A stretch of DNA of 64,000 nucleotides from Gammaproteobacteria bacterium (GCA_029244985.1 JAQWQD010000010.1:155828-219827); one strand, 5' to 3'. Positions 2,917 to 18,482 are shown, counted from the first letter of the stretch. Made by a program: numbers and translations. Notes: generated from the letters alone by a model not told the origin.

Positions 2917-4395
2917 CTAATCAACTAGCTTAATCCATGTACCTTCCTCTGGAGACCCTGTCGGATAATAGCCATTAAGAAGACGAAGTGTTTCTTCGGG
3001 AAAATTGGGGATTTTGCTAGATTGAGCTACTACAGAAAAATCAAAAAACTCGCTTGCCTGCACGTACTTGATTTTCAACTCACTACCAGCGACAACTTCT
3101 CCTTGCTGTATTGATCGGAAAGATCTAATTGCGGCCAAAAGCATTTCGTCGGTTGCCTCAGACTCAGCACCTTCACCAATTTCGCCGCGAAATGTAAACG
3201 CTCTAGGCCCTAAGTAAATAGTCGCCACTCGCTCCATTTTTCCAGTATCCGGGTTTACTGCCACACCAGTATGACCTAACAATCGAAATTGAGAGAGAAG
3301 CTCAGATTTTTGCAAATTTTCAATGCCCATGTTGTCTCTAATAAAAACACGTGGTTCGATATTTTCCTGCAAACGTTGGGCTTCAATTTTCAAGCTTCCA
3401 ACATTGCCTCCGTTAGCAGTCACCGTTGTAGTCGTCTCTATAACATTCCAGCCATCGGGGAGCACCAGTGTGTAACCTAATAAATCCTGATAATAGCGAT
3501 TGCGCTGATCGGTTCGTTGGGAGGCATTGCTCTGTCCAACGATAAGCCCATCGAGCTCTTCTCTAAAAGCATCATTGTCGGTTTTTGCTACGCCAGTTCC
3601 TTCTAACTGGCCAACTTCAGAGATAGCCTCCTGAAGCCGTCGATCATTCCGTGGGTGTGTTGCAAACAAACCGTGATAACTTCCGCCACCACCAGTAACA
3701 CGCCGGTTAAAGTCTTCCTGATTTTTAAGAACAGTGATAACTTCAATCATTGCTGCAGGATCGTATCCTGCATTCACTAAATATTCCGCTGCTAAACTAT
3801 CAGCCTCTAACTCTTGCTCTCGGCCAAAACCGCTAAGCCCCGTTTGTGCCCAGATAGAGGCGACCTCGCTGATTTGTGAAGCCGCATAGCCGCTACCTGT
3901 TGCTATACCGGCGACCAGCCCACCTGCGACTGCGGCTCCGCGAGCGAGCGCGCCTCTAGCCTGCTGCTGAACTGCATGCCGTGCAGTAATATGGGCGATT
4001 TCGTGGGCAAGTACTGCTGCTAGGTCGGCTTCTGAGTTCATGTAAGTTAACAAGCCGCGATTCACATAAACATAACCTCCGGGTAATGCGAACGCATTAA
4101 TTTCTGGGCTATCTATTACATGGAAATGATATTCAAGATTGGGGCGATGACTAACCATAGCCATCTTATTACCAATTTTTTTTACATAGGCAACGAGTTG
4201 TTCATCTTCAAAAAGCGACATGGAGCTCATTACTTTTTCGTGTTCTTCTAAGCCTATTTCCTTTTCTCGATTTTCTGTCATCAATACTAAGTTGGCTCCA
4301 CCAGTAGCCGGATTGACAGCACAGCCAACAAGAAAAAGTAACAATAATACCGATACGATTAGCGCGACGGAAAAACTATAGTTTATTTTAGTCAT
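2917..4395 (-). CDS. M48-family zinc metalloprotease, lipoprotein, with a roughly 200-aa C-terminal extension of unknown fold
   Basis: Lipobox LLFLVGC near the N-terminus. HEXXH motif LAHEIAHITARH preceded by INAFALPGGYVYVNRGLL, which is typical of M48 peptidases. Last gene of the same-strand block. Confidence 0.8.
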   Translation of the reverse strand: MTKINYSFSVALIVSVLLLLFLVGCAVNPATGGANLVLMTENREKEIGLEEHEKVMSSMSLFEDEQLVAYVKKIGNKMAMVSHRPNLEYHFHVIDSPEINAFALPGGYVYVNRGLLTYMNSEADLAAVLAHEIAHITARHAVQQQARGALARGAAVAGGLVAGIATGSGYAASQISEVASIWAQTGLSGFGREQELEADSLAAEYLVNAGYDPAAMIEVITVLKNQEDFNRRVTGGGGSYHGLFATHPRNDRRLQEAISEVGQLEGTGVAKTDNDAFREELDGLIVGQSNASQRTDQRNRYYQDLLGYTLVLPDGWNVIETTTTVTANGGNVGSLKIEAQRLQENIEPRVFIRDNMGIENLQKSELLSQFRLLGHTGVAVNPDTGKMERVATIYLGPRAFTFRGEIGEGAESEATDEMLLAAIRSFRSIQQGEVVAGSELKIKYVQASEFFDFSVVAQSSKIPNFPEETLRLLNGYYPTGSPEEGTWIKLVD

Positions 4396-4470
4396 CAGTA
4401 AATCCGACCATTAGAAGGACTCAATATTTTTAATAGTGCCAATTATCTTTCTTTAATGCAGCTTGCGTAT

Positions 4471-5190
4471 CTAACTACCATTTACAAAATCTTTGAGTTG
4501 AATTGCTAAACGGCTACACGCATTTGCTTCAACCCGGGCTAGCAGTGGAATTGGTATTACAAGTGCCGGCAGATAGGATTGTCCAGTAGCATCAGCATTT
4601 ATTGTTCCGACATTTTTCAGAGAATCGACATCCCATACGCGCGCATTGAAATTAGCATCGTCTTCCCAAGTGCCAAACCCAAAGCATCCGCCACCGGCCG
4701 GACCAACAGTGCAAGAAATTGAACCGGTACGGCCAGAGGTTTCTGTAAAACCATCAACCCATACGATGTAACGAATTCCGTAGTCATTCATTTTGTTTGC
4801 GACTACATCTTCAGCCATGAGCTGCTCTAAATCACGTGTTCTTAGTGGTGCCGTACGAGGTTCGAACCAAGGAAACATCGAATCGATAAATTCCTGCTCA
4901 GGAACTACGCTTATCGCATTCTCACCGCGTTGCATGCGATCACCAACACACTCAACAAATCCAGAATCAGTTTCGTAATCGCTAGCCTGCCTACGCCCTA
5001 AAATTACAACAGATTCGTCAGTTTCAATTCCGGTTTCACCTTGGCGAAATTCATCCACTGTAGTGCTGGTGCACGCAGCAAGCAGACTCGCAATAAAAAA
5101 TGTTGCACCGACATTTACAATTTGCGTTTTTTTTATAGTGCTCATATTGATGCCTTCTCGAGTACCCCGATCTAGAGGTTTCTTAGCCAT
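4471..5190 (-). CDS. Hypothetical lipoprotein
   Basis: Signal/lipobox ATFFIASLLAAC. No recognisable domain. An alternative start at M16 (nt 5145, GAAGG about 9 nt upstream) would remove the 19-nt overlap with the upstream gene. Confidence 0.6.
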   Translation of the reverse strand: MAKKPLDRGTREGINMSTIKKTQIVNVGATFFIASLLAACTSTTVDEFRQGETGIETDESVVILGRRQASDYETDSGFVECVGDRMQRGENAISVVPEQEFIDSMFPWFEPRTAPLRTRDLEQLMAEDVVANKMNDYGIRYIVWVDGFTETSGRTGSISCTVGPAGGGCFGFGTWEDDANFNARVWDVDSLKNVGTINADATGQSYLPALVIPIPLLARVEANACSRLAIQLKDFVNGS

Positions 5191-5798
5191 TCACTTACTT
5201 CCGGCACTTGAGAAAAGCTCAATGAGAAACTAGAAGCGAGATCTCGTAATGCCACAACGGTAGCTCCATTAATCCCGTCCTGTACTGAGCGAAAAGTTGC
5301 CGTCGGTGTCTTCCCATAGGATGTTAAGACCCAATCCGCAATATAGTCACCTTCGGTTGTAACTAAGCGCATGTTGTATTTTATCCAGACTTCATACACA
5401 TCAAGCTTGGTCTTTGCTGGCAGTGCTAATTGAAATTCCTCAATTACGGGAGCAAACACTGCGTCAACTTTTTGTTCGACGGCGTCTTCCATAGTATCCA
5501 CGTTAACGACCCGATCAAACATCGCGGGAAGCACAGCGTCGAACAATCGAATATGAGATTGGCCGCTCTCTATATTTATTTCTTCGCGCCCGGTTTCGCT
5601 GTACTCCATATATGCGAATTCACGCAGAGCGTCTTCATAAATAACCGCTACGGACATCGGCATTTTGTTTACGTTCGGAGTAGGGAAATTGCCTTCTATG
5701 ACAACATTGCTAGCGCCACAAGCGGAAACTAGCAGGAGTAGTAACGCAGTGCCAAACCTGTATAGGAGAGCTTGTATTGTCATGTTCGGCTGATTCAT
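5172..5798 (-). CDS. Hypothetical lipoprotein
   Basis: Lipobox LLLLLVSAC. I place the start at the ATG at 5798 (MNQPNMTIQ...) because AAGGAA lies 6 nt upstream of it. The ORF-track start at 5849 adds a basic, non-signal-like 17-aa extension. Confidence 0.6.
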   Translation of the reverse strand: MNQPNMTIQALLYRFGTALLLLLVSACGASNVVIEGNFPTPNVNKMPMSVAVIYEDALREFAYMEYSETGREEINIESGQSHIRLFDAVLPAMFDRVVNVDTMEDAVEQKVDAVFAPVIEEFQLALPAKTKLDVYEVWIKYNMRLVTTEGDYIADWVLTSYGKTPTATFRSVQDGINGATVVALRDLASSFSLSFSQVPEVSEWLRNL

Positions 5799-5845
5799 CG
5801 CCATTTCCTTAAAATTCTTATACCGTGTAATTCTAATACGCCAAA

Positions 5846-6856
5846 TCACTGATAATCGTTCAACCCTACAAATGTACCACCATTTCGCTGCGTCATCTCC
5901 CGCATTAGAGTGGAATATCGGTAAACACTTTGCTGAAATCGTCTAGGGCCCGCGAAAATGACAGGAAAACCTATCCCATGAATTCTTACCAGGCGATCAC
6001 CATTCTCATCCTCAACATTAATGCGATCAATGGTTTGAAGAACATTTTGGATCGATCCGCCTGGCTGAAAATCATCCCCGAGCACATAAATACTTATGTT
6101 TTTATCATATTCATAAAACGTGTCTATGGCCCGTGTCACACCTTCTACAGGGCTGCTGTTGCTGTAGGGGTTCCAAGACCTTAAAGTCTGAATAATCTGA
6201 CTGCGTCTACCTGGAGTATCCGGGATCCAGTCTCCGCGGTAAGATTCGAACATGTAGTCACCCATGTCATTCATTACCTGGATTCCTTTTACTTCAGGAT
6301 ATACATCCAAGGTATCTCTAATGACACCAAGCATTTTGTCCCAACTTGGGTTTTGAAACATGCTGCCAGAGGTATCGATTACAAAAATAATGTACTCGCT
6401 GTCGACAGGAACACCGCCAATAGCATTGTTCTCGGGGGCTCGCGTGTTGGCAAGCAAACGTTGCATTTCTTCAGTGAGAGATTGTTGCGCCAGAACCAGG
6501 CGGCCAAATTCATCCGTGGTTTCATCTGACAACTCTTTAGTTGTACTGAATTGACCCTCAATGTCATTCAAGTCACGGCGCAACCTGGCAATACGATCCT
6601 CCATTGCAGAGAGTTGCTCATGCTTGGCATTTAGCTCACGGTTTAAGATCGTAGTTTCTCCCCTAATCTCAAACAGTTGCTCCTGCAGTTCAGCAACCAC
6701 GCCCGCTGGCGTAATGTTTTCTACATATTCCAAGGTAGTTGGTGCCGAAGACTTGGTGATCATTAACAGAATAATCATCGCTCCAAACCCACAGGATGCA
6801 ACATCTAGGAATGAGACTGTAAAGGAATCGGTTTCTCTGTTCTTACGATTTGCCAT
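5846..6856 (-). CDS. ExbD/TolR-like TM anchor + coiled coil + periplasmic vWA (MIDAS) domain protein (paralog 2)
   Basis: N-terminal FTVSFLDVASCGFGAMIILLMI resembles the ExbD/TolR TM helix with its conserved Asp. A heptad-rich segment covers about aa 55-135. The vWA motif IIFVIDTSGSM (DxSxS) is present, with a GGTF near the C-terminus. Confidence 0.7.
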   Translation of the reverse strand: MANRKNRETDSFTVSFLDVASCGFGAMIILLMITKSSAPTTLEYVENITPAGVVAELQEQLFEIRGETTILNRELNAKHEQLSAMEDRIARLRRDLNDIEGQFSTTKELSDETTDEFGRLVLAQQSLTEEMQRLLANTRAPENNAIGGVPVDSEYIIFVIDTSGSMFQNPSWDKMLGVIRDTLDVYPEVKGIQVMNDMGDYMFESYRGDWIPDTPGRRSQIIQTLRSWNPYSNSSPVEGVTRAIDTFYEYDKNISIYVLGDDFQPGGSIQNVLQTIDRINVEDENGDRLVRIHGIGFPVIFAGPRRFQQSVYRYSTLMREMTQRNGGTFVGLNDYQ

Positions 6857-6936
6857 ATTTATTTTTTAACGCAATCGTTGAGTCAATTTACAAACATTAT
6901 TCAGCCCATTTCTGCCAGTACTTATAGTCCTTCCAG

Positions 6937-8040
6937 CTAAGGCCAATCTTTCGAAGGCGTTAAAAAAGAGCCTTTCGTATATTGCGCCAACTGCCAGTAA
7001 ATAGCTGCAGCACTTGGGTCCCCTTCCAATGGCATCAATATGACATTGACCGGAATTGACTGAGGTAATTCTTCAACTGCTTCCTCAAATAATTCCGCCC
7101 GGTCTGCGGGTGTTATCAGAGAACCTCTGGCACCCCGGTCATCAAGGGTAGGTAAGCCGTCGGTAATTAGGAAAATATTATCTGGCCTAGGTGACATATT
7201 TGCTACTGCCCGAAATACCTGGGCCATATTTGTGCCACTGTCCGGCACTATGCCTTTTACGTTATCAATTACCTGATTAAGTTGGTCTCGATCCGCGACC
7301 TCTAACCACCTATCTTCTGTACCAGGCAGCACGGCTTTGTATTCAGTGTTGAAATTCCACATTTGATATTGGCTGGTGATGGGTAACTGGGTACTCACCC
7401 AGTCCACAGTATTGACAACTCGTTGCCATTTTGGCGCATTGCGCTTGCGCTCGTCATCCATATTGCGTGTGCGAATGATATTTACGATAGTGCTATCCAG
7501 CATACTGGCCGAGCTGTCTATGAGCACAAGAATTCTTTGGCCGCCGAGAAATAAGCCAGAGAGATACTGACGATTCCCATCCCCTAGAAATTGACGAACA
7601 CTATTGCCTTCCTGTTCGAAGGCGCTTGCCTGCAATCGCAATAACTCATTTTCCAGAGTCTCTATATCTGAACGAAGTTGAGCCACGTCTTCGACGCTGG
7701 CCATACTGTTGTTTTCAAGTGCAGCGAGTTCCTGCAAGAACGTGTCTATTTGCTCCAAGATCTGGCGCGCAAGACCCTCCGCCGCGACTACCTCAAAATC
7801 GACATCAGAAAGAATATTGCGAACCCGAACCAAACCAAGCTGACCTTCCTGAATTTCTTCTTCCAACAAATTTATTTCTGCAGTCAGGTCTGGGCTGGTT
7901 GCTTCTGGAGAGACGGAGCTAGCATGATCCAAGATTAGAAAAATAAGAATCACAGCGCCAAAGCCACAAAACATGACGTCAAGAAAGGCTAAGCTTAATG
8001 GATTAACTTTGCGTCTGTTTGATTTACTATTACTAGCCAT
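6937..8040 (-). CDS. ExbD/TolR-like TM anchor + coiled coil + periplasmic vWA (MIDAS) domain protein (paralog 1)
   Basis: N-terminal NPLSLAFLDVMFCGFGAVILIFLIL (compare ExbD TPFIDVMLVLLIIFMV). A coiled-coil region follows. vWA motifs are ILVLIDSSASM (DxSxS) and IFLITDGLPT. The start overlaps the upstream stop by 8 nt. Confidence 0.7.
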   Translation of the reverse strand: MASNSKSNRRKVNPLSLAFLDVMFCGFGAVILIFLILDHASSVSPEATSPDLTAEINLLEEEIQEGQLGLVRVRNILSDVDFEVVAAEGLARQILEQIDTFLQELAALENNSMASVEDVAQLRSDIETLENELLRLQASAFEQEGNSVRQFLGDGNRQYLSGLFLGGQRILVLIDSSASMLDSTIVNIIRTRNMDDERKRNAPKWQRVVNTVDWVSTQLPITSQYQMWNFNTEYKAVLPGTEDRWLEVADRDQLNQVIDNVKGIVPDSGTNMAQVFRAVANMSPRPDNIFLITDGLPTLDDRGARGSLITPADRAELFEEAVEELPQSIPVNVILMPLEGDPSAAAIYWQLAQYTKGSFLTPSKDWP

Positions 8041-9391
8041 CGTTAACCTGAATCAGATTTATTTCGTCACCATTGCTTTCGAATTGGATACAGTCACCCA
8101 GCTTCAGTAATTGCTCTCCTGTTACTAGATTATCGTTCAAAAATACTTTCTGCACCAAACTATTGAGGTAAACACCCTCCTCGCGCAGCTCAATTCGACC
8201 CAGAGACTCTGGCAAATTTTCTATGTCCATGACTAGCGTATTTATGTCCAGCGACTTTCCATTCAGTACTGGCTTGTTCTTAATTTCAAGCTTATCAATT
8301 GCAATAGCGCGATTAGCATAAAGTACATGAGTCGGGTTATCGCCTCTGTCGCTATTTATGTTTTCATTTTGCTTAGTCGGTTTAATTCTATCTAATTTTG
8401 CTATCGGCAATCTGCTAACGAGATGAATGCCTCCCTTCGCAGTAACGATGTGAGCTTTGTTCTGATGACAAGCTTCGTTAACTAAATGATTTTTAACTAC
8501 AACGAAATTTTCCGTAGTATCGGTAGACGCTAAAAAGCCAGGAAGGTCTGCGATGGCTTGACTGAATAAGATATCAACATTGCTGCTATCAACTAATGAA
8601 TTAATCTGTTCATTGATTTTTTTGTAATATTCATTGAGATTCCTTATCAGGCTTTCTCTCGGAAGTTTAGCAGTATGTATGGCGCTTTCGCTTTTAAGCT
8701 CCAGCAAGAGTGTTTTTTCTTTCTCGTCCTGCAATAACCACGAAGGTAACTCATTATAGAGCTGTTGCTCAGATTCAGCGTTATGTTGAGGGTTAAAACG
8801 ACACTGCTGAATAAACATGTCCGTTGCAATTTGCATCATTAAATTCATAAAGTTCTGACTGCCAACTCCAGGGATCTGAATAACACCATCGGTCCTGAGA
8901 TGCTCATCAACAAGTGTCAGTTTCGAAAGTACTACCTGATGCAATTGGATATCAGCATAGACAATTTGTTCTCTTTCGGAGGATACCAGTGCTGCTGCTA
9001 ACGCAGAATCAACAACACCAATCGGCGTAAAAGGACACTGTTGTGCAAGGCCTAATAGAATGGCTAACTGTGGTCGAGTAAAGTTACCTGGCACTGCAAA
9101 AATAACGTCTGCATCAATCTCGCCGGCATCGGCCAGGTGCATTAATTGAGCATATGCCAGATCAGCATAGTGTCTAACTTTTTTGCTGTGGGAAATGGGC
9201 TCTAGACTCAGATCGCACCAATACTTGCTAAAGCTGTGGGTTGGTCGCAATCGTGCTTGTCGTTCCGCAGATTCCCCCACCTCGAGTTTGTCATCTGCTG
9301 CCAATGCAAATCCGGGGCTCTCTAAGATGACGCCACTCTCATCACCGACCTTAATCTCACGGTCATTTAGCTCTATTACTTTTAATGACAT
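8033..9391 (-). CDS. Cytoplasmic Hsp70/actin-fold protein with degenerate nucleotide-binding motifs and an FHA-like C-terminal domain (tentative)
   Basis: VIFAVPGNFTRPQLAILLGLAQQCPFTPIGVVDSALAAAL aligns with Hsp70 [33 protein letters not shown]. The phosphate-1 DLGTTNS position reads ELNDREI and the DLGGGTFD position reads DIQLHQVV. The C-terminal LGRIEL....LNDNLVTGEQLLKLGDCIQF resembles an FHA core. No signal peptide or TM segment. Confidence 0.6.
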   Translation of the reverse strand: MSLKVIELNDREIKVGDESGVILESPGFALAADDKLEVGESAERQARLRPTHSFSKYWCDLSLEPISHSKKVRHYADLAYAQLMHLADAGEIDADVIFAVPGNFTRPQLAILLGLAQQCPFTPIGVVDSALAAALVSSEREQIVYADIQLHQVVLSKLTLVDEHLRTDGVIQIPGVGSQNFMNLMMQIATDMFIQQCRFNPQHNAESEQQLYNELPSWLLQDEKEKTLLLELKSESAIHTAKLPRESLIRNLNEYYKKINEQINSLVDSSNVDILFSQAIADLPGFLASTDTTENFVVVKNHLVNEACHQNKAHIVTAKGGIHLVSRLPIAKLDRIKPTKQNENINSDRGDNPTHVLYANRAIAIDKLEIKNKPVLNGKSLDINTLVMDIENLPESLGRIELREEGVYLNSLVQKVFLNDNLVTGEQLLKLGDCIQFESNGDEINLIQVNDG

Positions 9392-9409: not shown

Positions 9410-10222
9410 TTAGCTATTCGCCTTTTCTGGAACTTGCATGTGGCGAATCAATCGTTCATCACAATAGTTTTGACAGTCGAGCACCAATCTATCCTGCTGC
9501 AATTGCAATTGATGCAGAAGAAACATTAAGAAAATACTCACAACCAGAGCTACGAATGTGGAATTAAAGGCAACTCCTAAGCTTTGGGTAACTCCCGCAA
9601 TATCCCCCGCGACGGCCTGATAAGCTTGCCCCAAAGCAGTGCCGATGCCTCGAACAGTGCCCAAAAATCCGATTGAAGGAATTGCCCAAGCAATATAGCG
9701 GACAATAGAAAGTTCCGTTTCCATTCGGTCTGCTTCAGTTTCACATGTATCTTTAATGATCGAGGAAACAGCGTGAATGTTTTGTGTGCTTTGAAATCGA
9801 TGTAACCCTGCCAACAAAGCACGCGGTAGCAGAAATTCCTTTTCTTTAGGCCCAAGCGCCTGAACTGGTCTGGCGTAGTTGCGAGAATCCTCTGGCAAGA
9901 TACTCATGCCATCTTGCAGTTTCACCAGCGTCCTTTCGAGTAAAGCTCGTTGTCGCAAGGTGTGTTGAGTCTTCATGCCGATGATAGTAACGGCCCAAAG
10001 AAAGAAAATTATGCAAAACTCTTGTTCATAATCGCGAACAATTATGAATACGGAACGCTCCGGTACTATGTCTGGATTTTGTTCCTGCATTAATTGCTGC
10101 TGTTCTTGGATTAGCTCTGCATTGGGCCTGATCACCGTCACATAAGTGGCATGCACTATGATAATCACGAAAATCAAAGTACCAATTTGGAAGAGCGCTT
10201 CATACAATGAGCCTTGCTTCAT
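9410..10222 (-). CDS. MotA/TolQ/ExbB-family proton channel protein
   Basis: The C-terminal signature VRYIAWAIPSIGFLGTVRGIGTALGQ...IAGVTQSLGVAFNSTFVALVVSIFLMFLLH matches the MotA_ExbB motif (APLLGLLGTV.GMI..F....GIS.AL.TT..GL..AIP). There are also N-terminal TM helices. Confidence 0.8.
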   Translation of the reverse strand: MKQGSLYEALFQIGTLIFVIIIVHATYVTVIRPNAELIQEQQQLMQEQNPDIVPERSVFIIVRDYEQEFCIIFFLWAVTIIGMKTQHTLRQRALLERTLVKLQDGMSILPEDSRNYARPVQALGPKEKEFLLPRALLAGLHRFQSTQNIHAVSSIIKDTCETEADRMETELSIVRYIAWAIPSIGFLGTVRGIGTALGQAYQAVAGDIAGVTQSLGVAFNSTFVALVVSIFLMFLLHQLQLQQDRLVLDCQNYCDERLIRHMQVPEKANS

Positions 10223-10255: not shown

Positions 10256-10564
10256 TTAGATATCAACCGGAAATGAAACACCCAAGTCCTGGGATATTTG
10301 CTCAGTTGGAATGAAACGAGAGTTTGAGTTTTCTACTTCGCTTTCCTCGCCTCCTTCGTCTGCCCCCAGGATCAATTCATCATTGTCAGCGACGCCCAAT
10401 TCTTCGAGGGTTAATTCTGTATCAATAATCTGCTGTTCAGTTTGAGCTTCCTGTTCCGTGTCAGCGGATTGACTGTCCTGAGCCCCCGCACTTAAGGAAA
10501 GCAGTCCAGCAAATAGCAGAATTGTTTTTTTCACGTAATAGCTCTCTTTAGCTGGTGTACTCAT
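10256..10564 (-). CDS. Small secreted, highly acidic protein
   Basis: Signal peptide KKTILLFAGLLSLSAGAQD, then about 70 aa rich in D/E/Q. It sits 3 nt downstream of the preceding stop and 33 nt upstream of the MotA/ExbB gene. Confidence 0.55.
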   Translation of the reverse strand: MSTPAKESYYVKKTILLFAGLLSLSAGAQDSQSADTEQEAQTEQQIIDTELTLEELGVADNDELILGADEGGEESEVENSNSRFIPTEQISQDLGVSFPVDI

Positions 10565-10567
10565 AGG

Positions 10568-12661
10568 TCACTCCAAATAGCGCGCTACTCGGAAACCTAC
10601 ATCATCGCGCGGCTCTTCCCCAAAATCTCGAAAAGACAACCGCATTTCCGTGACTGCACCGTGCGCCCAGCTGGATCCACGAATAGTATGAAACTGTCCC
10701 AACTCTGGCCCAAGAGGATCAACTTCAATGCCTATCGAACCAACTGCACCATAAAAGTCATGCACCCACTCCGATACGTTTCCTGCCATATCAAAAATTG
10801 CGTACTGATTTGGAGTGAATGATCCAACTGGTGCTGAGGCAAAATAATTGTCATTGTAGTTAAACATGATTTCGCCTAAATAGTTTTGGGCTGTAATATC
10901 GGCAAAGTTACCAGCATTTTCTGGAGGCGGAAGCTCATCACCCCAAGAATATTTTAGTTGATTACCACTGCCATCAGTTCGAGCCGTCCATGCCCATTCT
11001 GCTTCAGTAGGCAGCCTATAACCGGTTGTGTTGGAGTTAAATCCAACTACATCTTCTCCTTCTATTTCATAAAAGAGCGGCAGGCTTTCCTGTTCACTAA
11101 GCCAATTACAATAGCGGGCTGCCTGGGACCAACTGATTTGCACAGCTGGTTGTTCTTCATTATTCAAAGTAACACCTGAGACAGTACCGGACGAATGCTC
11201 TGGATCAAACTGACGATACTCCGTATTTCTTACTTCATGGAAACTAATATAAAAAGGACGATCTAGCTCTATATCACGCAAGTTCTCGTTGGGGCGACGC
11301 CCAGCTTCTCGGCGCGAAGCCCCCATGGTAAATGCGCCAGGATAAAAAAGCTTTAGTTGTTGCCCCGTTGCAGTAGTAATCACCGGTTGAATTTGGTCCA
11401 GTCGGGCCTGCTCTAAAGATTTCAGAGTAACCCTAATCGCCTGATCTAAACCTGGCCTAGAGGTAAACTCGCTAGCGTAAGGCACGAAGCCTTCTTTACG
11501 AATTTCGATCTTTTGACTAGCCGCCATTAACGCAACAGTTTGATTGGCCAAGCCTCTAAATTCGCCGTTAACGTAAAGTTCTGCATCTTCGGGATGGGCA
11601 ATCACACTAACATTGGTCAACTCTGGATCTAGATCAATGCTTAGTTCTCTTTCCTGGTTTGGTTCGGTACGAATTGAAGTTCTACTGGATCGATAACCAT
11701 TCTTCAAAAATGTCAGATCATGATTTTGGCCAGGAGGCAAGGCAACCTCCAACGGAGTGAGGCCCTTGTATTCTCCACCGATGGTTACAGCCGCTGCAGA
11801 AGGGTTGCTGCGGATAAATACCAATCCATCCGCCGGCTCCAGTTCAACCTGAGGTACCGTGAAGTCTTCGCCGGCGATGATATCAAAATCTTCCTGCCAG
11901 GCTTTATGGCCTGCTAGCTTGAGAGTAAGGTCCCGACGACCCTGAATGATCTCGGAATTAACCGGGGTAGTCCCAATCACAACACCATCTAGAAAGACAT
12001 CTGCTCCAGGCGGGGACGTTGACAAACTAACCACTGCCCAGGCCGGTTCCAGACTGGACTGATAACGTTGCTCGACTTCTCTTCCTTCGATATCAATGGT
12101 TTCGCCATAATCAAGATATCGGTCCATAGAAATGGTCATCTGATGCTGTCCAGGCTCAATAGAAATGTCGACTAAAGGAGTAACCCCAATATCTACACCA
12201 TCAATTTGTACTCGGGCACCATTTAATTCCATAGTCGCAATTGAAACAATGCCCGGAAGTCTTCGCATTTCAAAGGGAACAGTTTGTGACTGCTCATTAG
12301 TAACTAAGAGTTGAGTATTTGTTTCATGATAGCCTTCGTTGGTGAGTTTTATTTCGTAGGACCCAGTCCTGATAAGGTACCTTTGCCCTAAACGAACTCT
12401 CAACCCGCCACTAATTTCTATTTGCGCAGTTATTGGATTAACTTCCACAAATACAGATCTCGCAGTTAGAACAAACCAGCCGGCAATGCCTGATAACAAA
12501 ACAAATACACCAACGACAAAGTGTACTGGCTTGGGTTTAAATGTGACTCGCGGCCCTTTTTCATCATGAGGCGTAAAGTCAATCGGAATTATAGGGCTGG
12601 CTGGCCCGATATTCTCACTAATTTCGATGTCGTCCACTTTCGCATCACCTATTTGTGGCAA
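10568..12661 (-). CDS. Single-pass membrane protein with about 5 PEGA repeats and a C-terminal FGE-sulfatase (SUMF1/EgtB/PvdO-fold) domain
   Basis: TM helix VHFVVGVFVLLSGIAGWFVLTA. PEGA-like units include PPGADVFLDGVVIGTTPV, PSAAAVTIGGEYKGLTPLEV and PEDAELYVNGEFRGLANQ. FGE-fold motifs are GAFTMGAS, ISWSQAARYCNWLS, YRLPTEAEWAWTAR, GNVSEWVHD and IRGSSW...VGFRVARY. Confidence 0.8.
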   Translation of the reverse strand: MPQIGDAKVDDIEISENIGPASPIIPIDFTPHDEKGPRVTFKPKPVHFVVGVFVLLSGIAGWFVLTARSVFVEVNPITAQIEISGGLRVRLGQRYLIRTGSYEIKLTNEGYHETNTQLLVTNEQSQTVPFEMRRLPGIVSIATMELNGARVQIDGVDIGVTPLVDISIEPGQHQMTISMDRYLDYGETIDIEGREVEQRYQSSLEPAWAVVSLSTSPPGADVFLDGVVIGTTPVNSEIIQGRRDLTLKLAGHKAWQEDFDIIAGEDFTVPQVELEPADGLVFIRSNPSAAAVTIGGEYKGLTPLEVALPPGQNHDLTFLKNGYRSSRTSIRTEPNQERELSIDLDPELTNVSVIAHPEDAELYVNGEFRGLANQTVALMAASQKIEIRKEGFVPYASEFTSRPGLDQAIRVTLKSLEQARLDQIQPVITTATGQQLKLFYPGAFTMGASRREAGRRPNENLRDIELDRPFYISFHEVRNTEYRQFDPEHSSGTVSGVTLNNEEQPAVQISWSQAARYCNWLSEQESLPLFYEIEGEDVVGFNSNTTGYRLPTEAEWAWTARTDGSGNQLKYSWGDELPPPENAGNFADITAQNYLGEIMFNYNDNYFASAPVGSFTPNQYAIFDMAGNVSEWVHDFYGAVGSIGIEVDPLGPELGQFHTIRGSSWAHGAVTEMRLSFRDFGEEPRDDVGFRVARYLE

Positions 12662-14177
12662 CTACACGTTCAACACATTGAACAAGAACTGAATCTGGCG
12701 TTTGGTTAAACCCAACTACAAATTCTTCACGAACTTCTCTATAGCCTATACGTTTTCCTACAGCAACGTATCTGCCCGGCTTTAAAGATACAATGGTTTG
12801 TTCAAACAATCCTAGATTTCCGATTCTCAAAATAGTCACATCTGTCAGGTTGTCAGAAACCATTTGTATATCAAGAGGCACCTGCGAAGTCTCTAATAAT
12901 AGCTGCAACTTCTGGAGTTGATCGGATATTCGAGCACCAGGATTTTCGATTGCTCTCCCTGTGTAGTAAACGTCTAAGGTTTGTTGGAAAACATCTTGCT
13001 CGTAGAATCTATCAGGAGTTTCGATAGCACTAACCAACAGATCATCGAGTTGCGCCCGCTTACTGGCATAATCACGGCCGTTAATCGCAAACACGAGGTT
13101 TGCGTCTATTACCAAAGCATTGTCATACTCAACCACTGCCGTATGCCATTGCTCTTGGCTTTCAGCTTCTGTGATTCTTAATTGGATTACTGAAATTTCT
13201 ACATTCGCTATTTCATTTTCAGTTTGTGTTATTGCTGCACGTGCTTGTTCTTGATTGATTCCCAAACTCGCGGCTCGCTCAAATTCTGCAATGGCTTGAT
13301 CCGGGTTATCGCTTTCCAAAAAAGCATAGCCTGATGACATTATGAAAGAAAACTCCCGCTGCAAAATTAAACCTGCAACTTCAGAAATTCTCTGTTGAGC
13401 ATCCTGATTATAACTATCTAAGCTGACTATTTGTCGATAAATAACTTGCGCCGCTTCTAATTCATCATCCTCTAGCAGGCTATCTGCCTCCGCTAATAGT
13501 CCAGATACTTCGTCTAGCGCGCGCGCCCTTTCTAAGCCAATTTGCGCAACCTCACTGTCGGGGTCTAAGAGAAGCGCTAGTAAAAACTTGTTTTGAGCCA
13601 CAAACGAGTCTCGTGCATCAAGGGCGCTCTGAGCATCTACCAAGTTTTGATTCAGCACCACGGGAACCATAGCTTGTATCTCAACTAAATCGTCTCGCCC
13701 TTGGGTATAAGATTCAGTTGCTAATTGAAAATCTTGAGTTCGGTAATATTCATCTCCAATACTCGCAACTTCCAACGCGGCGATATATTCTTCCTGTGCC
13801 CATTGCTCTACGTCGAGAAGCTCCAGAATTTCTTGCTGGGTTAAGAGTTCTGCCAGGACGTCTTGTGCTTCTTTCCTTTGTCGCGAACGTTGTGCCTCTT
13901 CGAAAGGAGAAATCATTGACACCGTCTCTGCCGGCAATGGCTGCAACTCCGTGACATCAACTCTGAGCTCTAAGGGTAATTCATATTCAGTGACGAGAGC
14001 TGGCAATACGAAAATAACAAGCAGGGCAGCAAGCAGTAAACCTGCCACACTAACCCAAATCCAAATAGGGGGACTTTTAGACTCTAACGCGGCAGAGGAA
14101 TTGACATAAATCTGGTTCTCAGTAAATCCAGATTGCTGCGACTCTTGCTTGTTCTTTTCGACATCTTTCTCTGACAT
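12645..14177 (-). CDS. Single-pass membrane protein with a long helical/TPR-like periplasmic region and a PEGA-like C-terminal module
   Basis: TM helix IWIWVSVAGLLLAALLVIFVLPAL. Acidic helical repeats follow (DQAIAEFERAASLGINQEQA and similar). The C-terminus reads LKPGRYVAVGKRIGYREVREEFVV. The stop overlaps the next gene's start by 17 nt. Confidence 0.55.
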   Translation of the reverse strand: MSEKDVEKNKQESQQSGFTENQIYVNSSAALESKSPPIWIWVSVAGLLLAALLVIFVLPALVTEYELPLELRVDVTELQPLPAETVSMISPFEEAQRSRQRKEAQDVLAELLTQQEILELLDVEQWAQEEYIAALEVASIGDEYYRTQDFQLATESYTQGRDDLVEIQAMVPVVLNQNLVDAQSALDARDSFVAQNKFLLALLLDPDSEVAQIGLERARALDEVSGLLAEADSLLEDDELEAAQVIYRQIVSLDSYNQDAQQRISEVAGLILQREFSFIMSSGYAFLESDNPDQAIAEFERAASLGINQEQARAAITQTENEIANVEISVIQLRITEAESQEQWHTAVVEYDNALVIDANLVFAINGRDYASKRAQLDDLLVSAIETPDRFYEQDVFQQTLDVYYTGRAIENPGARISDQLQKLQLLLETSQVPLDIQMVSDNLTDVTILRIGNLGLFEQTIVSLKPGRYVAVGKRIGYREVREEFVVGFNQTPDSVLVQCVERVVATNR

Positions 14178-14219
14178 ATCTATTTCTGAAGATGGAACAG
14201 ACCAGTTATTGACGTCTGC

Positions 14220-15404
14220 TTACAGTTGTCCTACTTCCGCCGCATAAAGATCTGCCAAGATTTCACGCCATTGCTCATACTGCTCTTCCACTGACCCGGT
14301 GAGAGTAATTGTACGGTCGTCTAAGTTTATAACTTGAGGTGCCACTTCATTTTCAAGAGACTGGCCGAGTTCTTCAAGCGCTTCCATATGAATTCTTGCT
14401 TCGGCTCGTTTATCGAATCCACTTCTAATCAAATAAGCGCCAGCTCCGACTCCAAACGCCCCGCCAGCTTGTGTTGCATAGTTACTGCCTTGAGTTGCGG
14501 CAGCCAAGCCACCAACAACAGCGACAGCACCAGCAATAAATCGACGCTTAGCAGAGGCCTCTAATTCTCGTAGTGTTATTGTTTCGTGATAACTCTGTTC
14601 ACGCCATGAATCATAAGGCAAACGCATCTGCCGAACATATGTTGCGTAATAATCTTGAACCGTATCAATGAACATAAAATCTCGTTCACGAATATCTCGA
14701 ATTCTTTCGAGCACTGGGTCAGAATCCGCAGGCAACGAGTTAATCTGATAAATCCCATTACGACTGGTTGTTAAGTAGGGATCAAATACATCTGGAGAGA
14801 AACGTCGCGCAAACAATATTTCAGAAATTGTTCGAATCTCAACTACCTCTTCGTCAGTAATATTATTTTTTTTCCAGGCCAATAAATCATTGGCTATATT
14901 GTTGTACAAAATCTGAAAAGGGTCGCTCTGCTGACGCTGAGATGGGTCGTAACTGAACTGGCTAATTTCTTGATCATAAACTTTGGTGTACCAATTTTTG
15001 CCCGTTGAATCTGCAACGTGCACTCGCATGCTCATTGATTCGCCATTCGATTCCAGAATAGTGCCCGTAATGTAAACATCCATTGGACTGGAGTGATTAG
15101 GCATTAAGCGGACGATGCCCCAATTTGCAGAGCGCTGCAGCGTCTCTGCTAATAGATAAGGGGCATAACGTGATTCCGCAACTCTGACCTGATGATTGGT
15201 AAGTTCTTCCTGATCACCATCCAACTCATCCAGCCCCGGATCAAACATTGCCACACCAACATCCAACAGCAAGTCCTCGGGCACGCCCTGGCTGTCTCGA
15301 ACAACCGGTGTGTAAGAAGTTGTTTTGACAGTATGCGTTGCACAGGCGCTTAAAAAAACAGCGGCCGCTAACAAGCCAATTGCATTTTTAGCAAGGAATC
15401 TCAT
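14220..15404 (-). CDS. Hypothetical lipoprotein with a glycine-zipper segment near the C-terminus
   Basis: Lipobox AAAVFLSAC. Gly/Ala zipper FIAGAVAVVGGLAAATQGSNYATQAGGAFGVGAGAYLI. ATGA start/stop overlap with the upstream gene at 15401-15404. Confidence 0.6.
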   Translation of the reverse strand: MRFLAKNAIGLLAAAVFLSACATHTVKTTSYTPVVRDSQGVPEDLLLDVGVAMFDPGLDELDGDQEELTNHQVRVAESRYAPYLLAETLQRSANWGIVRLMPNHSSPMDVYITGTILESNGESMSMRVHVADSTGKNWYTKVYDQEISQFSYDPSQRQQSDPFQILYNNIANDLLAWKKNNITDEEVVEIRTISEILFARRFSPDVFDPYLTTSRNGIYQINSLPADSDPVLERIRDIRERDFMFIDTVQDYYATYVRQMRLPYDSWREQSYHETITLRELEASAKRRFIAGAVAVVGGLAAATQGSNYATQAGGAFGVGAGAYLIRSGFDKRAEARIHMEALEELGQSLENEVAPQVINLDDRTITLTGSVEEQYEQWREILADLYAAEVGQL

Positions 15405-16534
15405 TGCTCTTCACCTTCACTAATACCTGTATAGTTTCTGTACTCATCCCAAAGCGCCTCACGCAATTCCAGGTCAGGCTCACTCATTGCAGCCTCTCTT
15501 AGCTGTCGAGCAACCACATCATCATCTCTCCCACTGGGAATATCTTCCGGTGGTGGAAAAGTTTCAGTCGGTGGCGGTGGAGAGGAAGATGAAGAAGGGC
15601 GCGATGCAGCAACGCCCGAGGGGGCTCCAGCTTCAGCTTCAGGGAGTGTTTGTGGTTGCGTAGAAGTATTACCGCCGCCGGCATCTCCTCCCGGCTGCGC
15701 GCTGCCTGCAGCATTACTTTCATTCTGAGCTTGTTCTCTTTCACTGAGAATGAAGCCATCAAAGGTTTCATAGCCTCGACGTAGTCTTTCGTCCAATACT
15801 TTTGCTCTTTCAACAGAGGTCATTGGTCCAGTGTTTTGAGTTTGCATGGAGCTATTTCCACTTAAAACACTATTTGGCAGCGTATCTAAGCTATAATCCC
15901 CACTGGGGCTCTCTAAAAGCCCTCCACCTGAACCAGAGTTCCCACCTTGACCTGAATTTAGATCTCCAGTAGAAATGTCGCCACTGGCATTGCCAGAGCC
16001 GGAGGTTGGAGCGCTTCTCCGACCTTGCTGTCCTGCCGGATTACCTTGCCCCTGTTGACTTTGCTGTGCTGATTGCTGCCCCCCACCAGATGCCTGACTT
16101 CCAGAATCGCTAGAAGGCACAGAGCTATCACGCGCACCTTGATCCCTAGATTGACTATTCGCCGAACCTCGCCCACTTGTTTGTGGAAAATTCGATGAAG
16201 TCTGCGGCATCGGATTATCCCTATTGGCTTGGGCTTGAGAGCTGCTCTGGGCTCCCTGCGAACGCTGGGAAGAGCTACCGGAGGGCGACGGGTTCGATTG
16301 AGAGCGGCTACTACTGCTCGAAGATGGCATTGACGGCGATGATTGTGACCTCGACCTCGAACTGCTTGATGATGGCATCGATTGCGAGCTTGGTGAGCTC
16401 GGGCTCGAAGAAGAGGGCATAGATGGCATACTCGCAGAGGATGAGCTCTGACTCGAGCTTTGACATGCCAGAAAGCTTAAGCTGATTACGCTTAGCAAAA
16501 CTATCTTAGGCATTATCATATTAAACTTTTTCAT
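15401..16534 (-). CDS. Ser/Gln/Gly-rich, predicted disordered lipoprotein
   Basis: Lipobox ISLSFLAC, then about 200 aa of low complexity (SASMPSMPSSSSPSSPSSQSMPSSSSSRSRSQSSPSMPSSSSSS...). The more ordinary C-terminal third carries VERAKVLDERLRRGYETFDGFIL and a PPPPTETFPPPEDIP stretch. The frame is supported by ATGA coupling to the next gene. Confidence 0.6.
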   Translation of the reverse strand: MKKFNMIMPKIVLLSVISLSFLACQSSSQSSSSASMPSMPSSSSPSSPSSQSMPSSSSSRSRSQSSPSMPSSSSSSRSQSNPSPSGSSSQRSQGAQSSSQAQANRDNPMPQTSSNFPQTSGRGSANSQSRDQGARDSSVPSSDSGSQASGGGQQSAQQSQQGQGNPAGQQGRRSAPTSGSGNASGDISTGDLNSGQGGNSGSGGGLLESPSGDYSLDTLPNSVLSGNSSMQTQNTGPMTSVERAKVLDERLRRGYETFDGFILSEREQAQNESNAAGSAQPGGDAGGGNTSTQPQTLPEAEAGAPSGVAASRPSSSSSPPPPTETFPPPEDIPSGRDDDVVARQLREAAMSEPDLELREALWDEYRNYTGISEGEEQ

Positions 16535-16843
16535 AGATTTAACTTGGATTTGAAGCAGCTGTGAATTGCACTCCCTTTTTCGTGATTTTAGCTACTTTTT
16601 ATCGACATTTTCGATTTATAGGTACATATCAAAACAAATAGTCGAAATTTATAACTCACTGAAAATGTGCAGCTTAATTGTAATCCAGCCCCCTTTACCT
16701 TTGCTTAACAATAGAACAGCTAATCATTGGATGCTACATCTTACATCGTCCTGCCCATATACACGAACCCGTTAGCTATCCCGCAATTCCTTATGGTAGA
16801 TTTCAAGTGCACTGGTCCGGGAGCCGGCGACGCTGTGACGCCA

Positions 16844-16975
16844 CTACTGGTCGACGATCATTTCACGCATTTCTCCCACACGAGTCTCGGCATCTTCTTC
16901 CGAGACTGCACCCTCGGAAACGGCTTGACCGATACTGGCTTCGGCCCGCCTGATGGCCTGGACTTTGCCAGTCAT
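16844..16975 (-). CDS. Possible small acidic helical protein (43 aa), below the ORF-track size cutoff
   Basis: Hand translation gives MTGKVQAIRRAEASIGQAVSEGAVSEEDAETRVGEMREMIVDQ*. GAGGA lies 6 nt upstream of the ATG. It is on the same strand as the flanking operon genes. An in-frame stop lies 8 codons upstream of the ATG. Confidence 0.3.
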   Translation of the reverse strand: MTGKVQAIRRAEASIGQAVSEGAVSEEDAETRVGEMREMIVDQ

Positions 16976-17096
16976 CGACCATCCTCTACCGAAAAACTAT
17001 CCCATAGACATCTTTTCGCAAAAAACCCCAATCAGGATACTTTTGAAATCCCGGAAAACGCTGTTTAAAATAACTATTCACGCTATCTACTGAAAA

Positions 17097-18482
17097 TTAG
17101 TACCAATACCTGTAGCGAAACGCCTGTCCATTAGTACGTTCCAGCTTTCCTTCGACTAGCATAGGTCGAAACGTCGAAGCCCGGACTTCACGGCGTAATT
17201 GGGAAAGCCTATATGCGTTTTCTTCTGTTTCTTCAGATAGAACTTCTATGTTTCTGGGTCTACCGGCCTCAGTAACATCAAGAGAAATATCCGCGTAAGC
17301 GTGACTTAAAGTATTCCGACTCTTCGCATCGCCAGCGCTCATCTTCAAATTGCGAGGATCTTCTGCAAAGGTCGGCAGCAACACTACCTGGCCAAATAGT
17401 TTCTTAATTAGCTCGTCGCCATTTTCTTCAGAAGCTAATAATTCCCATGCCTGCAGATAAAAGTCATCTGCCGTTCGGCGCCGATTAAACATCAAGAACC
17501 AGTCCGCTAAGTGAGTAATCGCTTCAGCCATCGCGTAGACATTATAAGGCTTTGTGGATTGGTAACTTACGATATTTTGCAAGGCAACTACACCGATATT
17601 ATAGCCCTGTGGCAAGATGGACTTGCGCTCATTTAATTGTTGTCGCAATACTTCCTGGCCGTTTCTATATTCGGGACGATCAATTTCCATTGTGTATTGG
17701 GGATAACGCGAGACCTGATACGCAGAGATAGCAAGATTTCGAAGGTAACGGGTGAAGCGCTCATCGTCCCTGCCAAAATGCATCTCTACCATGCGGACAG
17801 CGGTGCTATAGAGCATTTGGGCACTGCTTAAGCGCACTCCCAAAGCAGCACCGTAGCCAATATTAAAAGCTCGCATGTTCCATGATGCTAAACGGTCTAG
17901 CACTGGAATAATGCGAGGATCATTTGTTCCGTAAGCCTTCTGTTGCACAAAAAATAAATAATTGTTGTAGAGATCTGTGTTTTCCCAGTCTCCAAGCGCC
18001 AAATAGCTCTCGACCATTTCCTCAACCATTGGAATTTGATCAAGCGTGTGAAGACCGTTAGAAATGCGATTGATATGAACCGCACGATCAAATGCTTCGA
18101 TCGCCCCTATATGATTTCCTTGTTGCTGTTCGAGACCCCCAATGGAGGCAAGCTGCTCGGTTAAACCGCTGTCCCAAGCACCCCCAAACCCTTCCAAAGA
18201 ATCCACGTTTTCCGAGTATTCGCGAATACTATTCATTCGGTCGATAAAATCAGGATCATCTTCTGGGTCGAACTCTTCAACTTTTAGCGGTAACTCTGGG
18301 AATTGAGGTTCTATACCTGGCTGGATAGGGACTGGAACTTCGATGTAGTGTATGGTCGCCGGCGCTGGCTCTTCTGCAGGCAAAGAGGCAGCATCTTCTC
18401 CCTGGCTATAGAGCTCTTGAGCGCTGATGCTTACAAGCACAGCACAGAGGCGAAGGCTTAATTTGAATGAAATACTGCGCAT
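17097..18482 (-). CDS. Secreted protein: Pro/acidic N-terminal stretch, helical repeat middle, TonB-C-like C-terminal domain (tentative)
   Basis: Signal peptide MRSISFKLSLRLCAVLVSISAQ. Then PAEEPAPATIHYIEVPVPIQPGIEPQFPELP. The C-terminus YADISLDVTEAGRPRNIEVLSE....ASTFRPMLVEGKLERTNGQAFRYRY resembles the TonB_C pattern (G.V.v.f.V...G...n..V..S........A......wrF.P....G.pv). Confidence 0.55.
   Translation of the reverse strand: MRSISFKLSLRLCAVLVSISAQELYSQGEDAASLPAEEPAPATIHYIEVPVPIQPGIEPQFPELPLKVEEFDPEDDPDFIDRMNSIREYSENVDSLEGFGGAWDSGLTEQLASIGGLEQQQGNHIGAIEAFDRAVHINRISNGLHTLDQIPMVEEMVESYLALGDWENTDLYNNYLFFVQQKAYGTNDPRIIPVLDRLASWNMRAFNIGYGAALGVRLSSAQMLYSTAVRMVEMHFGRDDERFTRYLRNLAISAYQVSRYPQYTMEIDRPEYRNGQEVLRQQLNERKSILPQGYNIGVVALQNIVSYQSTKPYNVYAMAEAITHLADWFLMFNRRRTADDFYLQAWELLASEENGDELIKKLFGQVVLLPTFAEDPRNLKMSAGDAKSRNTLSHAYADISLDVTEAGRPRNIEVLSEETEENAYRLSQLRREVRASTFRPMLVEGKLERTNGQAFRYRYWY

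Follow-up and report, generated by a model that had tools for sequence, protein, structure and literature searches.

Ion-driven motors of the MotA/ExbB type are the only known route by which energy reaches the Gram-negative outer membrane, and each known class of them (Ton, Tol-Pal, the flagellar stators, the motors of gliding and of the type IX secretion system (T9SS), and Zorya) has opened a field. The closest described relatives of the system treated here belong to a second family of von Willebrand factor A (vWA) proteins, the transpore-helix family, reported in 'Origin and Evolution of Bacterial Periplasmic Force Transducers' (Mol Biol Evol 2025; PMC12204202). In that family a MotA/TolQ-like gene is accompanied by two vWA genes, each product of which bears a transpore helix resembling that of ExbD, and tolR and exbD are missing. 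As far as the available part of that paper goes, its description consists of sequence and AlphaFold 3 models, covers the three motor genes, predicts that the vWA transpore helices are inserted into a TolQ-like pentamer, and takes its example from the gammaproteobacterium Idiomarina. Here we describe a cluster of 13 substantial open reading frames (ORFs), A to M, all on the minus strand at positions 2917-18482 of a 64,000 nucleotide stretch of DNA from a Gammaproteobacteria bacterium (GCA_029244985.1, JAQWQD010000010.1:155828-219827; the whole stretch is referred to below as the window). Such a motor trio, encoded by G, I and J, lies within the cluster. Domains and predicted topology suggest a trans-envelope machine energised by ion flow, and on balance we lean towards reading A to M as one conserved, ion-flow-driven envelope machine in which the vWA proteins I and J plug the channel formed by G, and which serves the upkeep of the outer membrane or periplasm.

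An earlier reading of the window made from its sequence alone (the sequence-only reading) had called this system undescribed. That does not hold for the G-I-J trio, published in 2025, and it stands for the other ten genes, which go unmentioned in the available text of PMC12204202, where neither Hsp70 nor sulfatase is named and FHA occurs only within FhaC. A literature search for prior descriptions of the cluster found no further paper, and a Ferrigenium preprint that shares the search vocabulary is unrelated. The parts list beyond G-I-J, the C-terminal motif of F, the C-terminal helix of B and a kinase/FHA variant of the cluster, as read from the sequences, appear to be new here, and they extend a three-gene computational description to a defined parts list with specific residues to mutate.

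Domain identities, conserved residues, gene order and co-occurrence were compared over about 170 sampled loci. When an H alignment was scanned against one genome per species, 80 loci were returned, the best matches being in the OM182/Pseudohongiellaceae group (94-96% identity), to which the window is thereby assigned. All 80 of these family loci keep the whole cluster, and also the flanking hydantoinase-like gene and RfaF/RfaC; since the flanks are kept as well, synteny at the family level could not separate the genes of the system from their neighbours. Across the family G, I and J are 67-99% identical and at least as conserved as the adjoining RfaC and RfaF. The distant sample consisted of the contexts of ten mutually distant J representatives and of 80 metagenomic loci, for which the search alignment was headed by an outlier sequence to keep close relatives from dominating. 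All ORFs of the distant loci, taken with a flank of 10 kb, were searched with profiles built from the family orthologues, and for each gene the denominator counts only the loci whose flanks were long enough.

About 89 distant loci of 27-73% GC share the order [A] B C D E F G [H] I J [K L M] (Table 1). This is far beyond chance, and the cluster is therefore one system. The hydantoinase-like gene is kept in no distant locus, and RfaF/RfaC in two closer relatives only; this loss of the flanks, with A to M kept, sets the boundaries of the system at A and M. Seven genes (C, D, E, F, G, I and J) form the core, around which A, B, H, K, L and M make up a variable shell. The cluster is widespread and strongly conserved, and most of its components have no Pfam family; clustered at 50% identity, the J family found in an exhaustive search numbers 1115 clusters up to E<=1e-3 and 289 at the stricter E<=1e-30. 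Several unrelated envelope operons lying side by side would agree with the wider gaps at the A/B (562 nt), I/J (80 nt) and L/M (75 nt) junctions, with the conserved non-coding element and weak promoter-like site found upstream of B, and with the loss of K, L, M and A from many distant loci. However, the B-to-J order is kept across 27-73% GC with near-complete co-occurrence, and the hydantoinase-like, RfaF and RfaC flanks are not kept outside close relatives. We give such a juxtaposition almost no credence, and for B to J it is largely refuted.

Table 1. Genes of the cluster in the window, their presence in distant loci, and the kinase-D fusions of five other loci
Feature	Product	Position	Strand	Presence in distant loci
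A	secreted protein	17097-18482	minus	
43-aa ORF		16844-16975	minus	
B	Ser-rich lipoprotein	15401-16534	minus	17/23
C	glycine-zipper lipoprotein	14220-15404	minus	22/28
D	bitopic tetratricopeptide repeat (TPR) protein	12645-14177	minus	30/33
E	bitopic PEGA/FGE-sulfatase protein	10568-12661	minus	36/38
F	small exported protein	10256-10564	minus	
G	MotA/TolQ/ExbB-family channel subunit	9410-10222	minus	44/44
H	cytoplasmic Hsp70-fold/FHA protein	8033-9391	minus	31/44
I	transpore-helix vWA protein	6937-8040	minus	67/67 (adjoining J)
J	transpore-helix vWA paralogue of I	5846-6856	minus	
K	lipoprotein	5172-5849	minus	26/62
L	lipoprotein	4471-5190	minus	17/54
M	M48 lipoprotein protease	2917-4395	minus	9/40
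Kinase-D fusion	Pkinase-transmembrane-TPR protein	L111:1548-3887		
Kinase-D fusion	Pkinase-transmembrane-TPR protein	L156:1548-3890		
Kinase-D fusion	Pkinase-transmembrane-TPR protein	L164:1780-4041		
Kinase-D fusion	Pkinase-transmembrane-TPR protein	L160:213-2558		
Kinase-D fusion	Pkinase-transmembrane-TPR protein	L155:2154-4403		

G is a protein of 270 aa with four predicted transmembrane helices and a Pfam match to MotA_ExbB (PF01618, E 9.3e-17). As in the class of PMC12204202, its gene neighbours the vWA genes, and G is present in every locus counted. Its scores with the NCBIfam models lie far below the cut-offs for TolQ (32.5 vs 221 bits and 16.8 vs 403), for MotA (16.3 vs 340 bits) and likewise for ExbB, and TolQ is the sole match of its profile among solved structures, at a weak E of 0.003. 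The signature Thr residues are kept in GFLGTVRGI and AFNSTF. Indeed, GF.GTVRGI in the third transmembrane helix and AFNST in the fourth are invariant in 27-48 distant G orthologues, and the GTVRG and NST motifs are at the positions of the pore Thr residues of ExbB and TolQ. In the class of PMC12204202 the Asp of the inserted helices would be ringed by conserved Thr residues of the channel, to which these invariant motifs, known here from sequence alone, would correspond. The alignment with TolQ begins at residue 71 of G, which has an extra N-terminal hydrophobic helix relative to TolQ. Four residues in the loop that joins its helices 1 and 2 are invariant, namely P33, A35, D64 and E66 (RP.A ... 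D.EQE). This loop (residues 33-66) would be periplasmic if the N-terminus is cytoplasmic, and is a candidate docking site.

I and J share one plan, in which a short tail and a hydrophobic helix come first and some 100 residues of coiled coil then lead to a vWA domain, and as paralogues of 20% identity in adjoining genes they form the pair of different tandem vWA genes of the published class. The transpore motif of I is LAFLDVMFCGFGAV, with the conserved Asp, and its intact metal-binding site (the metal ion-dependent adhesion site, MIDAS) reads DSSAS...GT...DG; the corresponding motifs of J are SFLDVASCGFGA and DTSGS...SSP...GDD. Both proteins carry the helix motif FLD..C.FGA, that is, the N-terminal Asp helix without SHLS of that class, and the Asp is kept across 68-80 distant orthologues. 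In 103 cluster representatives of J the residues D18, D161, S163, S165 and D261 are conserved at 93-100% (D18 at 93%) and the MIDAS pattern DxSxS...D at 95-100%, and the DxSxS and DG motifs are kept in most of 68 distant I orthologues, a conservation that argues for a functional ligand-binding vWA head. I has a Pfam match to VWA_2 (E 6.9e-06), and the coiled coil of J is supported by profile matches, its profile returning coiled coils only from the solved structures. No ExbD, TolR or MotB family match was found among the 13 products with Pfam and NCBIfam, in agreement with the absence of a syntenic tolR, exbD or motB in the published class. These sequence features place the G-I-J trio in the transpore-helix vWA class of 2025 as the available text of PMC12204202 presents it, from which the cluster differs in its added conserved partners A-F, H, K, L and M and in the kinase/FHA variant. 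In public databases identical or near-identical J proteins bear the JGI name 'Skp family chaperone for outer membrane proteins', which is wrong and probably a coiled-coil artefact, whereas at NCBI they are simply 'VWA domain-containing protein'; the cluster proteins are otherwise named 'hypothetical protein' or 'VWA domain-containing protein'.

With the Ton and Tol-Pal systems the cluster has in common a PF01618 channel, an Asp-bearing helix presumably placed in the pore, a periplasm-spanning element that would deliver force, a TonB-C-like domain (in A), a TPR protein, as with CpoB, and a likely outer-membrane role. It differs from Ton in having no separate ExbD, no anchored TonB with SHLS and a Pro-rich linker, and no TonB-dependent receptor in the cluster, and from Tol-Pal in having no matches there to the TolR, TolA, TolB or Pal families; unlike in either system, the force-bearing element would be a vWA heterodimer that is itself the plug. 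No OmpA or MotB match occurs in the cluster, as would be expected of MotAB/PomAB, and no AAA+ or MoxR match, as would be expected of the Bat/MoxR-vWA operons.

The core protein E consists of a transmembrane helix, PEGA repeats (Pfam, 1.8e-48 over four scored stretches) and an FGE-sulfatase domain (1.3e-39), which is C-type-lectin-like. Its nearest solved relative is the human formylglycine-generating enzyme (FGE; 7.6e-18), followed by matches at about 1e-14 to 1e-16 to PvdO and to kinase-linked FGE domains (5nxl, 7spq), and by PorK/GldK at about 3e-14. The catalytic Cys is replaced (W-AHG vs MCHRS), and by its sequence the FGE domain is non-catalytic. The best NCBIfam match of E is GldK/PorK (4.7e-28), and GldLM is also a 5:2-type motor, with a plug whose long periplasmic arm extends toward a non-catalytic FGE-fold protein near the outer membrane. 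We considered secretion or surface transport in the manner of T9SS/GldKLMN or Agl-Glt, in which a motor-driven arm would move cargo or adhesins via the FGE-fold partner. The motor, long stalk, lipoproteins and vWA domains, the last found also in the Myxococcus adhesin CglB (PMC9946355), do resemble gliding machinery. The Agl-Glt core of Myxococcus and some gammaproteobacteria comprises aglRQS together with gltD, E, G and C, and is defined by the separate TolR-like AglQ and AglS and by the membrane-anchored GltG (PMC3169522). As there, a TolQ-like motor is clustered here with TPR proteins, a protein with a TonB-like domain, and lipoproteins. However, in a comparison made at the level of domains, with the Glt sequences unaligned, the cluster has no TolR-like genes such as AglQ/AglS and no GltG, and the vWA pair, the PEGA-FGE protein, F and H have no Glt counterpart, so that the Agl-Glt core is not matched. 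Against the GldKLMN system, there are no GldL, GldM or GldN matches in the cluster, no SprA, no beta-barrel protein and no translocon. E itself was rejected as a GldK/PorK, as it scores 98.6 bits against a cut-off of 350, a true FGE scores higher, and it is anchored in the inner membrane by a transmembrane helix, with PEGA repeats, and not through a lipobox. The carriers also speak against gliding: they are labelled OM182/Pseudohongiellaceae, SAR86 cluster and Woeseia (metagenome-assembled genomes, in which the SAR86 label may be a mislabel; the labels of J cluster members say little beyond 'Gammaproteobacteria' and Woeseia). These are abundant marine groups, and to our knowledge such clades are free-living and not known gliders. 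Taken together, we regard a secretion or surface-transport apparatus as distinctly unlikely.

Zorya is a further case of a MotA-family channel used outside flagella, and PADLOC gives G a generic ZorA match (6e-05, residues 152-259) and otherwise generic or weak matches. A Zorya-type anti-phage or conflict system, with a MotA-like membrane sensor and effectors, would also agree with the STAND/AAA_16, Fic or restriction-modification genes that adjoin some distant loci, and with the kinase/FHA variant, such pairs being common in conflict systems (PMC7159879). However, G does not have the long tail of ZorA, the cluster contains neither a ZorB carrying a peptidoglycan-binding domain nor ZorC, ZorD, ZorE, a nuclease or another effector, and the survey of conflict systems (PMC7159879) makes no mention of MotA. 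The chromosomal context is fixed across the family, the core proteins are very highly conserved, and no J homologue was found in 72,556 plasmids or in 50,697 phage records. This reading is highly improbable in our view. Since the flanks are syntenic across the Pseudohongiellaceae and plasmid and phage homologues are missing, the cluster is inherited vertically and is not island-like.

Judged by domain content, none of Ton, Tol-Pal, MotAB, Agl-Glt, Zorya, GldKLMN/T9SS and Bat/MoxR fits the cluster. Much of this had been anticipated in the sequence-only reading. The Ton, Tol-Pal, Mot, Zorya, GldLM and MoxR components that it had found wanting are indeed missing in Pfam, NCBIfam and PADLOC searches, and profile searches on the products assign the set to no characterised named system. 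The test that it had proposed, co-conservation of the set across genomes, comes out in its favour in the distant loci, and its view that the genes are lineage-core, and no recent island, agrees with the syntenic flanks. Its guesses at the domains hold in nearly all cases, for E, G, I and M by Pfam, for D and A by profiles, and for H by a structure model and orthologues.

F is a small exported protein that begins with a hydrophobic helix, continues through an acidic linker of variable sequence, and closes with a nearly invariant C-terminus ending in ...VSFPVDI-COOH. It was found by profile search in only 20/38 loci, because its middle is variable; the motif [FY]xP[ST]E.[IV]..D..V.FP.DI-stop, in contrast, ends a short frame lying immediately upstream of G in 43/47 distant loci. 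In the minimal versions, the hydrophobic helix is followed by about 13 residues ending in SFPVDI. The motif also travels with other members of the cluster: where G is separated from I and J (locus L081), an F-like ORF lies directly upstream of I and J, and an F-like end occurs within a divergent operon containing D (L086). By this motif F is a core component. That the free C-terminus is invariant and has Asp at position -2 suggests that the carboxylate itself is recognised, and the core offers two candidate receptors, the TPR protein D and the MIDAS of the vWA pair. A vWA MIDAS can bind a free C-terminal carboxylate, as complement C3b is bound with factor B, and TPR carboxylate clamps such as those of Hop, PP5 and FKBP-type proteins bind EEVD-COOH. 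In D, a short tail in the cytoplasm leads through a single transmembrane helix to TPR repeats in the periplasm and an end that is PEGA-like, and the profile of D matches TPR structures at 2.6e-11, those of Hop, PP5 and FKBP-type proteins included.

H has no hydrophobic segment on reading its sequence. Pfam gave it no PF00012 match, and a single-sequence search against solved structures returned nothing useful. A structure model of H built with 36 homologues (predicted local distance difference test, pLDDT, 87) resembles the nucleotide-binding domains of Hsp70, DnaK and Hsp110 (Foldseek E about 1e-15, target-normalised TM-score 0.68-0.71, identity 12-15%). At the phosphate loops, which we take to be DLGTTNS and DLGGGTFD in Hsp70, H reads ELNDRE and DIQLHQ, and its C-terminus is FHA-like rather than an Hsp70 substrate-binding domain. 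As the glycine-rich phosphate loops and the substrate-binding domain are missing, we grade it as a non-Hsp70 of Hsp70/actin-type fold, which is probably not a canonical ATPase. The C-terminus of H in the window has no Pfam FHA match, even at E<=10, whereas FHA is scored in 16/42 distant H orthologues, with 1.3e-12 as the best. One of these (L090) aligns with H over its full length, and the region of it that scores as FHA (1e-10) is aligned to window residues 395-447. At the FHA positions GR ... SxxH ... NG the window protein reads GK/ESL/ND, and the S..H residues are missing. Through its orthologues the C-terminus of H is thus homologous to FHA by sequence, the copy in the window being degenerate.

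This degeneracy goes together with the distribution of a kinase. In five loci (L111, L155, L156, L160 and L164; Table 1) D is a Pkinase-transmembrane-TPR fusion of about 750-780 aa, the Ser/Thr kinase domain being N-terminal, and in two others a separate kinase gene lies just upstream (L090, 3406-4197; L137, 1664-2416). A kinase is present in 5/6 loci with the canonical FHA motif SRxH vs 1/18 with a degenerate one (Fisher p about 8e-4, from a hand count of loci that are not phylogenetically independent); the window has no kinase and a degenerate FHA. A kinase/FHA phospho-switch thus appears to exist in other lineages and to have been lost in the window. The same association would suit an envelope sensor, in which the TPR, lectin-like FGE and vWA domains sense the wall or outer membrane, the output passes through H and the kinase, and the channel powers probing or resetting. 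TM-PEGA-FGE (TM for transmembrane) is a common sensor architecture of Ser/Thr kinases, the kinase FGE-like domains 5nxl and 7spq are among the matches of E, and H is cytoplasmic with a protein-binding FHA module. Nevertheless, a kinase is lacking in most loci, the window among them, and H in 13/44, and the cluster holds no conserved transcription factor or second-messenger enzyme. The strongest conservation is that of the motor and MIDAS residues, and we consider a sensor unlikely.

Among the remaining products, five (B, C, K, L and M) have lipoboxes on sequence reading, A and F have N-terminal export signals, and D and E are bitopic with short cytoplasmic tails. A combines a signal peptide, a helical or TPR-like region with a weak TPR_12 match, and a TonB-C-like C-terminal domain. 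A single-sequence search against solved structures returned nothing useful for A, nor did Pfam match its C-terminus at E<=10; with a profile of the last 130 residues or so, the ten best solved-structure matches are all TonB (8rd6, 1xx3, 2gsk and 1u07 among others), at E 1e-4 to 5e-3. Its N-terminus is signal-peptide-like, with no His and no SHLS. A was found upstream of B in 6/23 distant loci, an underestimate because it sits at the edge of the 10-kb flank, and downstream of J in 7/40 (strand not tallied). In L098, L100, L111 and L164 it lies on the opposite strand just after K, mobile within the cluster yet linked to it.

B has the lipobox LSFLAC and a long, Ser-rich disordered linker leading to a C-terminal helix, DDD[IV]VARQLREAA..E.DP.LR.KLW.EYRKY, which is kept in distant loci, the profile matches mapping to the last 40-100 residues or so. 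C (lipobox FLSAC; 66-99% identity within the family) has a Gly/Ala-rich glycine-zipper segment at residues 289-330 and a weak Pfam match to the C19orf12 glycine zipper (0.005); its structure model, built with homologues at >=81% identity only, has a pLDDT of 42. K (lipobox LLVSAC) and L (lipobox SLLAAC, with four invariant Cys and a GPGGGGCFGFG motif in the alignment) have no Pfam, NCBIfam or solved-structure match. Since the lipoboxes follow internal Met residues, K and L have probably been annotated with starts that lie too far upstream, and the true start of K is probably an internal Met. M matches Peptidase_M48 in Pfam (8e-39), and its best NCBIfam model is M48_BAM_BepA (2.6e-40); by sequence its protease domain is closest to that of BepA, the beta-barrel assembly-enhancing protease. 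We rejected M as a BepA equivalog, as it scores 138.6 bits against a cut-off of 570, over residues 28-263, the protease domain, only, and is a lipoprotein. In one locus of 71% GC that keeps A to L (L088), a protein of 221 aa that has a 4HBT thioesterase domain (12272-12937) stands in the place of M. This is reminiscent of YbgC, encoded at the start of tol-pal operons, and could be a coincidence.

In the ion-flow-driven machine that we favour, G would be the ion channel, presumably a pentamer as in its relatives, and an I-J heterodimer would take the place of ExbD/TolR/MotB as the central plug, its transpore helices carrying the proton-binding Asp. The coiled coils of about 100 residues would form a stalk of roughly 15 nm with the vWA head in the periplasm, and proton flow through G would turn or pull this stalk in the manner of a 5:2-type motor. 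The vWA heads would grip an acidic ligand, so that force would be applied at the cell wall or outer membrane. We would look for this ligand first in a tethered F, at its free C-terminal end ...FPVDI-COOH; alternatively, the TPR protein D may clamp the C-terminus of F. E, with its PEGA spacer and lectin-like FGE domain, together with D and the outer-membrane lipoprotein C, could provide a periplasm-spanning frame that opposes the motor, to which the lipoproteins B, K and L, a TonB-C-type contact made by A and the BepA-like protease M would be accessories, with A, K, L and M as lineage-specific additions. At the cytoplasmic face H may act as a regulator or scaffold, perhaps gripping the short cytoplasmic tails of I and J as the actin-fold PilM grips PilN; in lineages with a kinase-D fusion, H would keep a phosphothreonine-competent FHA domain, and this phospho-switch would have been lost in the window.

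The syntenic flanks, the conservation of G, I and J, the missing plasmid and phage homologues, the BepA-like M and the five lipoboxes argue for an envelope role and not for a mobile element. The most likely output is the maintenance or remodelling of the outer membrane or periplasm, and not motility, secretion or phage defence, although this is the weakest step of the model. It is possible, but somewhat short of probable, that the cluster represents a functionally distinct class of 5:2 envelope machine, with a seven-gene core (C-G, I and J), a vWA 'hand' that pulls on F, switching by the kinase and H in some lineages, and a novel outer-membrane or periplasmic task. If true, a further class of envelope machine would serve a task that is covered by no known system.

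Several points weigh against the ion-flow-driven machine as we have drawn it. We infer its stoichiometry, rotation, ligand and physiological output, as well as all contacts between its parts, from the sequences, and by sequence G is very distant from all solved motors. The link between F and the vWA heads is one of gene adjacency and chemistry only, and if the helix of the minimal F versions is an uncleaved anchor, their tail could not reach a head 15 nm away. The profiles of C, K and L have no match among solved structures. No outer-membrane beta-barrel or peptidoglycan-binding domain was detected in the cluster, which leaves the far end of the machine undefined. The proposed outer-membrane output leans on M and on the neighbouring lipopolysaccharide-core genes; however, M is found in few distant loci (Table 1), and the linkage to lipopolysaccharide genes is confined to close relatives. 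Finally, in one locus (L160) the kinase is present and H is missing.

As to the layout of the locus, the coordinates, strand, overlaps and gaps given in the sequence-only reading all match the sequence. The B/C junction, read directly, is caATGAga, with an ATGA overlap at 15401-15404, and from the coordinates D and E overlap by 17 nt (only if E starts with TTG) and H and I by 8 nt, with intergenic gaps of 3, 18, 33 and 42 nt elsewhere in the cluster. The plus-strand ORFs within the interval are short antisense frames of 100-113 aa at most. The GC content of the cluster (43-47%) is like that of the remaining window (40-46%), as had also been remarked in that reading, and GC skew is negative across the whole cluster, as expected for minus-strand genes. 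An Rfam scan of window positions 1-24000 gave no match, and a promoter and terminator scan found fewer promoter-like sites than in shuffled sequence. The same-strand run continues upstream into the hydantoinase-like gene (18715-20733), whose product is of the hydantoinase/oxoprolinase A type (best NCBIfam match caprolactamase alpha, 481 bits vs a cut-off of 1000); this gene adjoins the cluster only within the Pseudohongiellaceae and is outside the system.

Between A and B, a non-coding stretch of about 95 nt (16652-16744), some 120-210 nt upstream of the start codon of B, keeps 76-85% identity in relatives even where the intergenic DNA around it can no longer be aligned. A weak promoter-like site, also upstream of B, is found at 16614-16585. 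The conserved element may serve B and the genes after it as an internal promoter or as a regulatory element. It is followed by an insertion of about 341 nt (16745-17086), of which the window holds no second copy and which is missing from the closest genomes, L015 (a 96% relative) and L001. In these genomes the stop of A is followed by TTTTCAGTAG, immediately after which, within about 10 nt of the stop, the sequence picks up again at window position 16744. The 43-aa ORF, which had been listed as a possible product of the system, sits in this strain-level insertion and was rejected as a component; it is present at the same A-B position in other environmental contigs, so that the insertion is a population-level indel.

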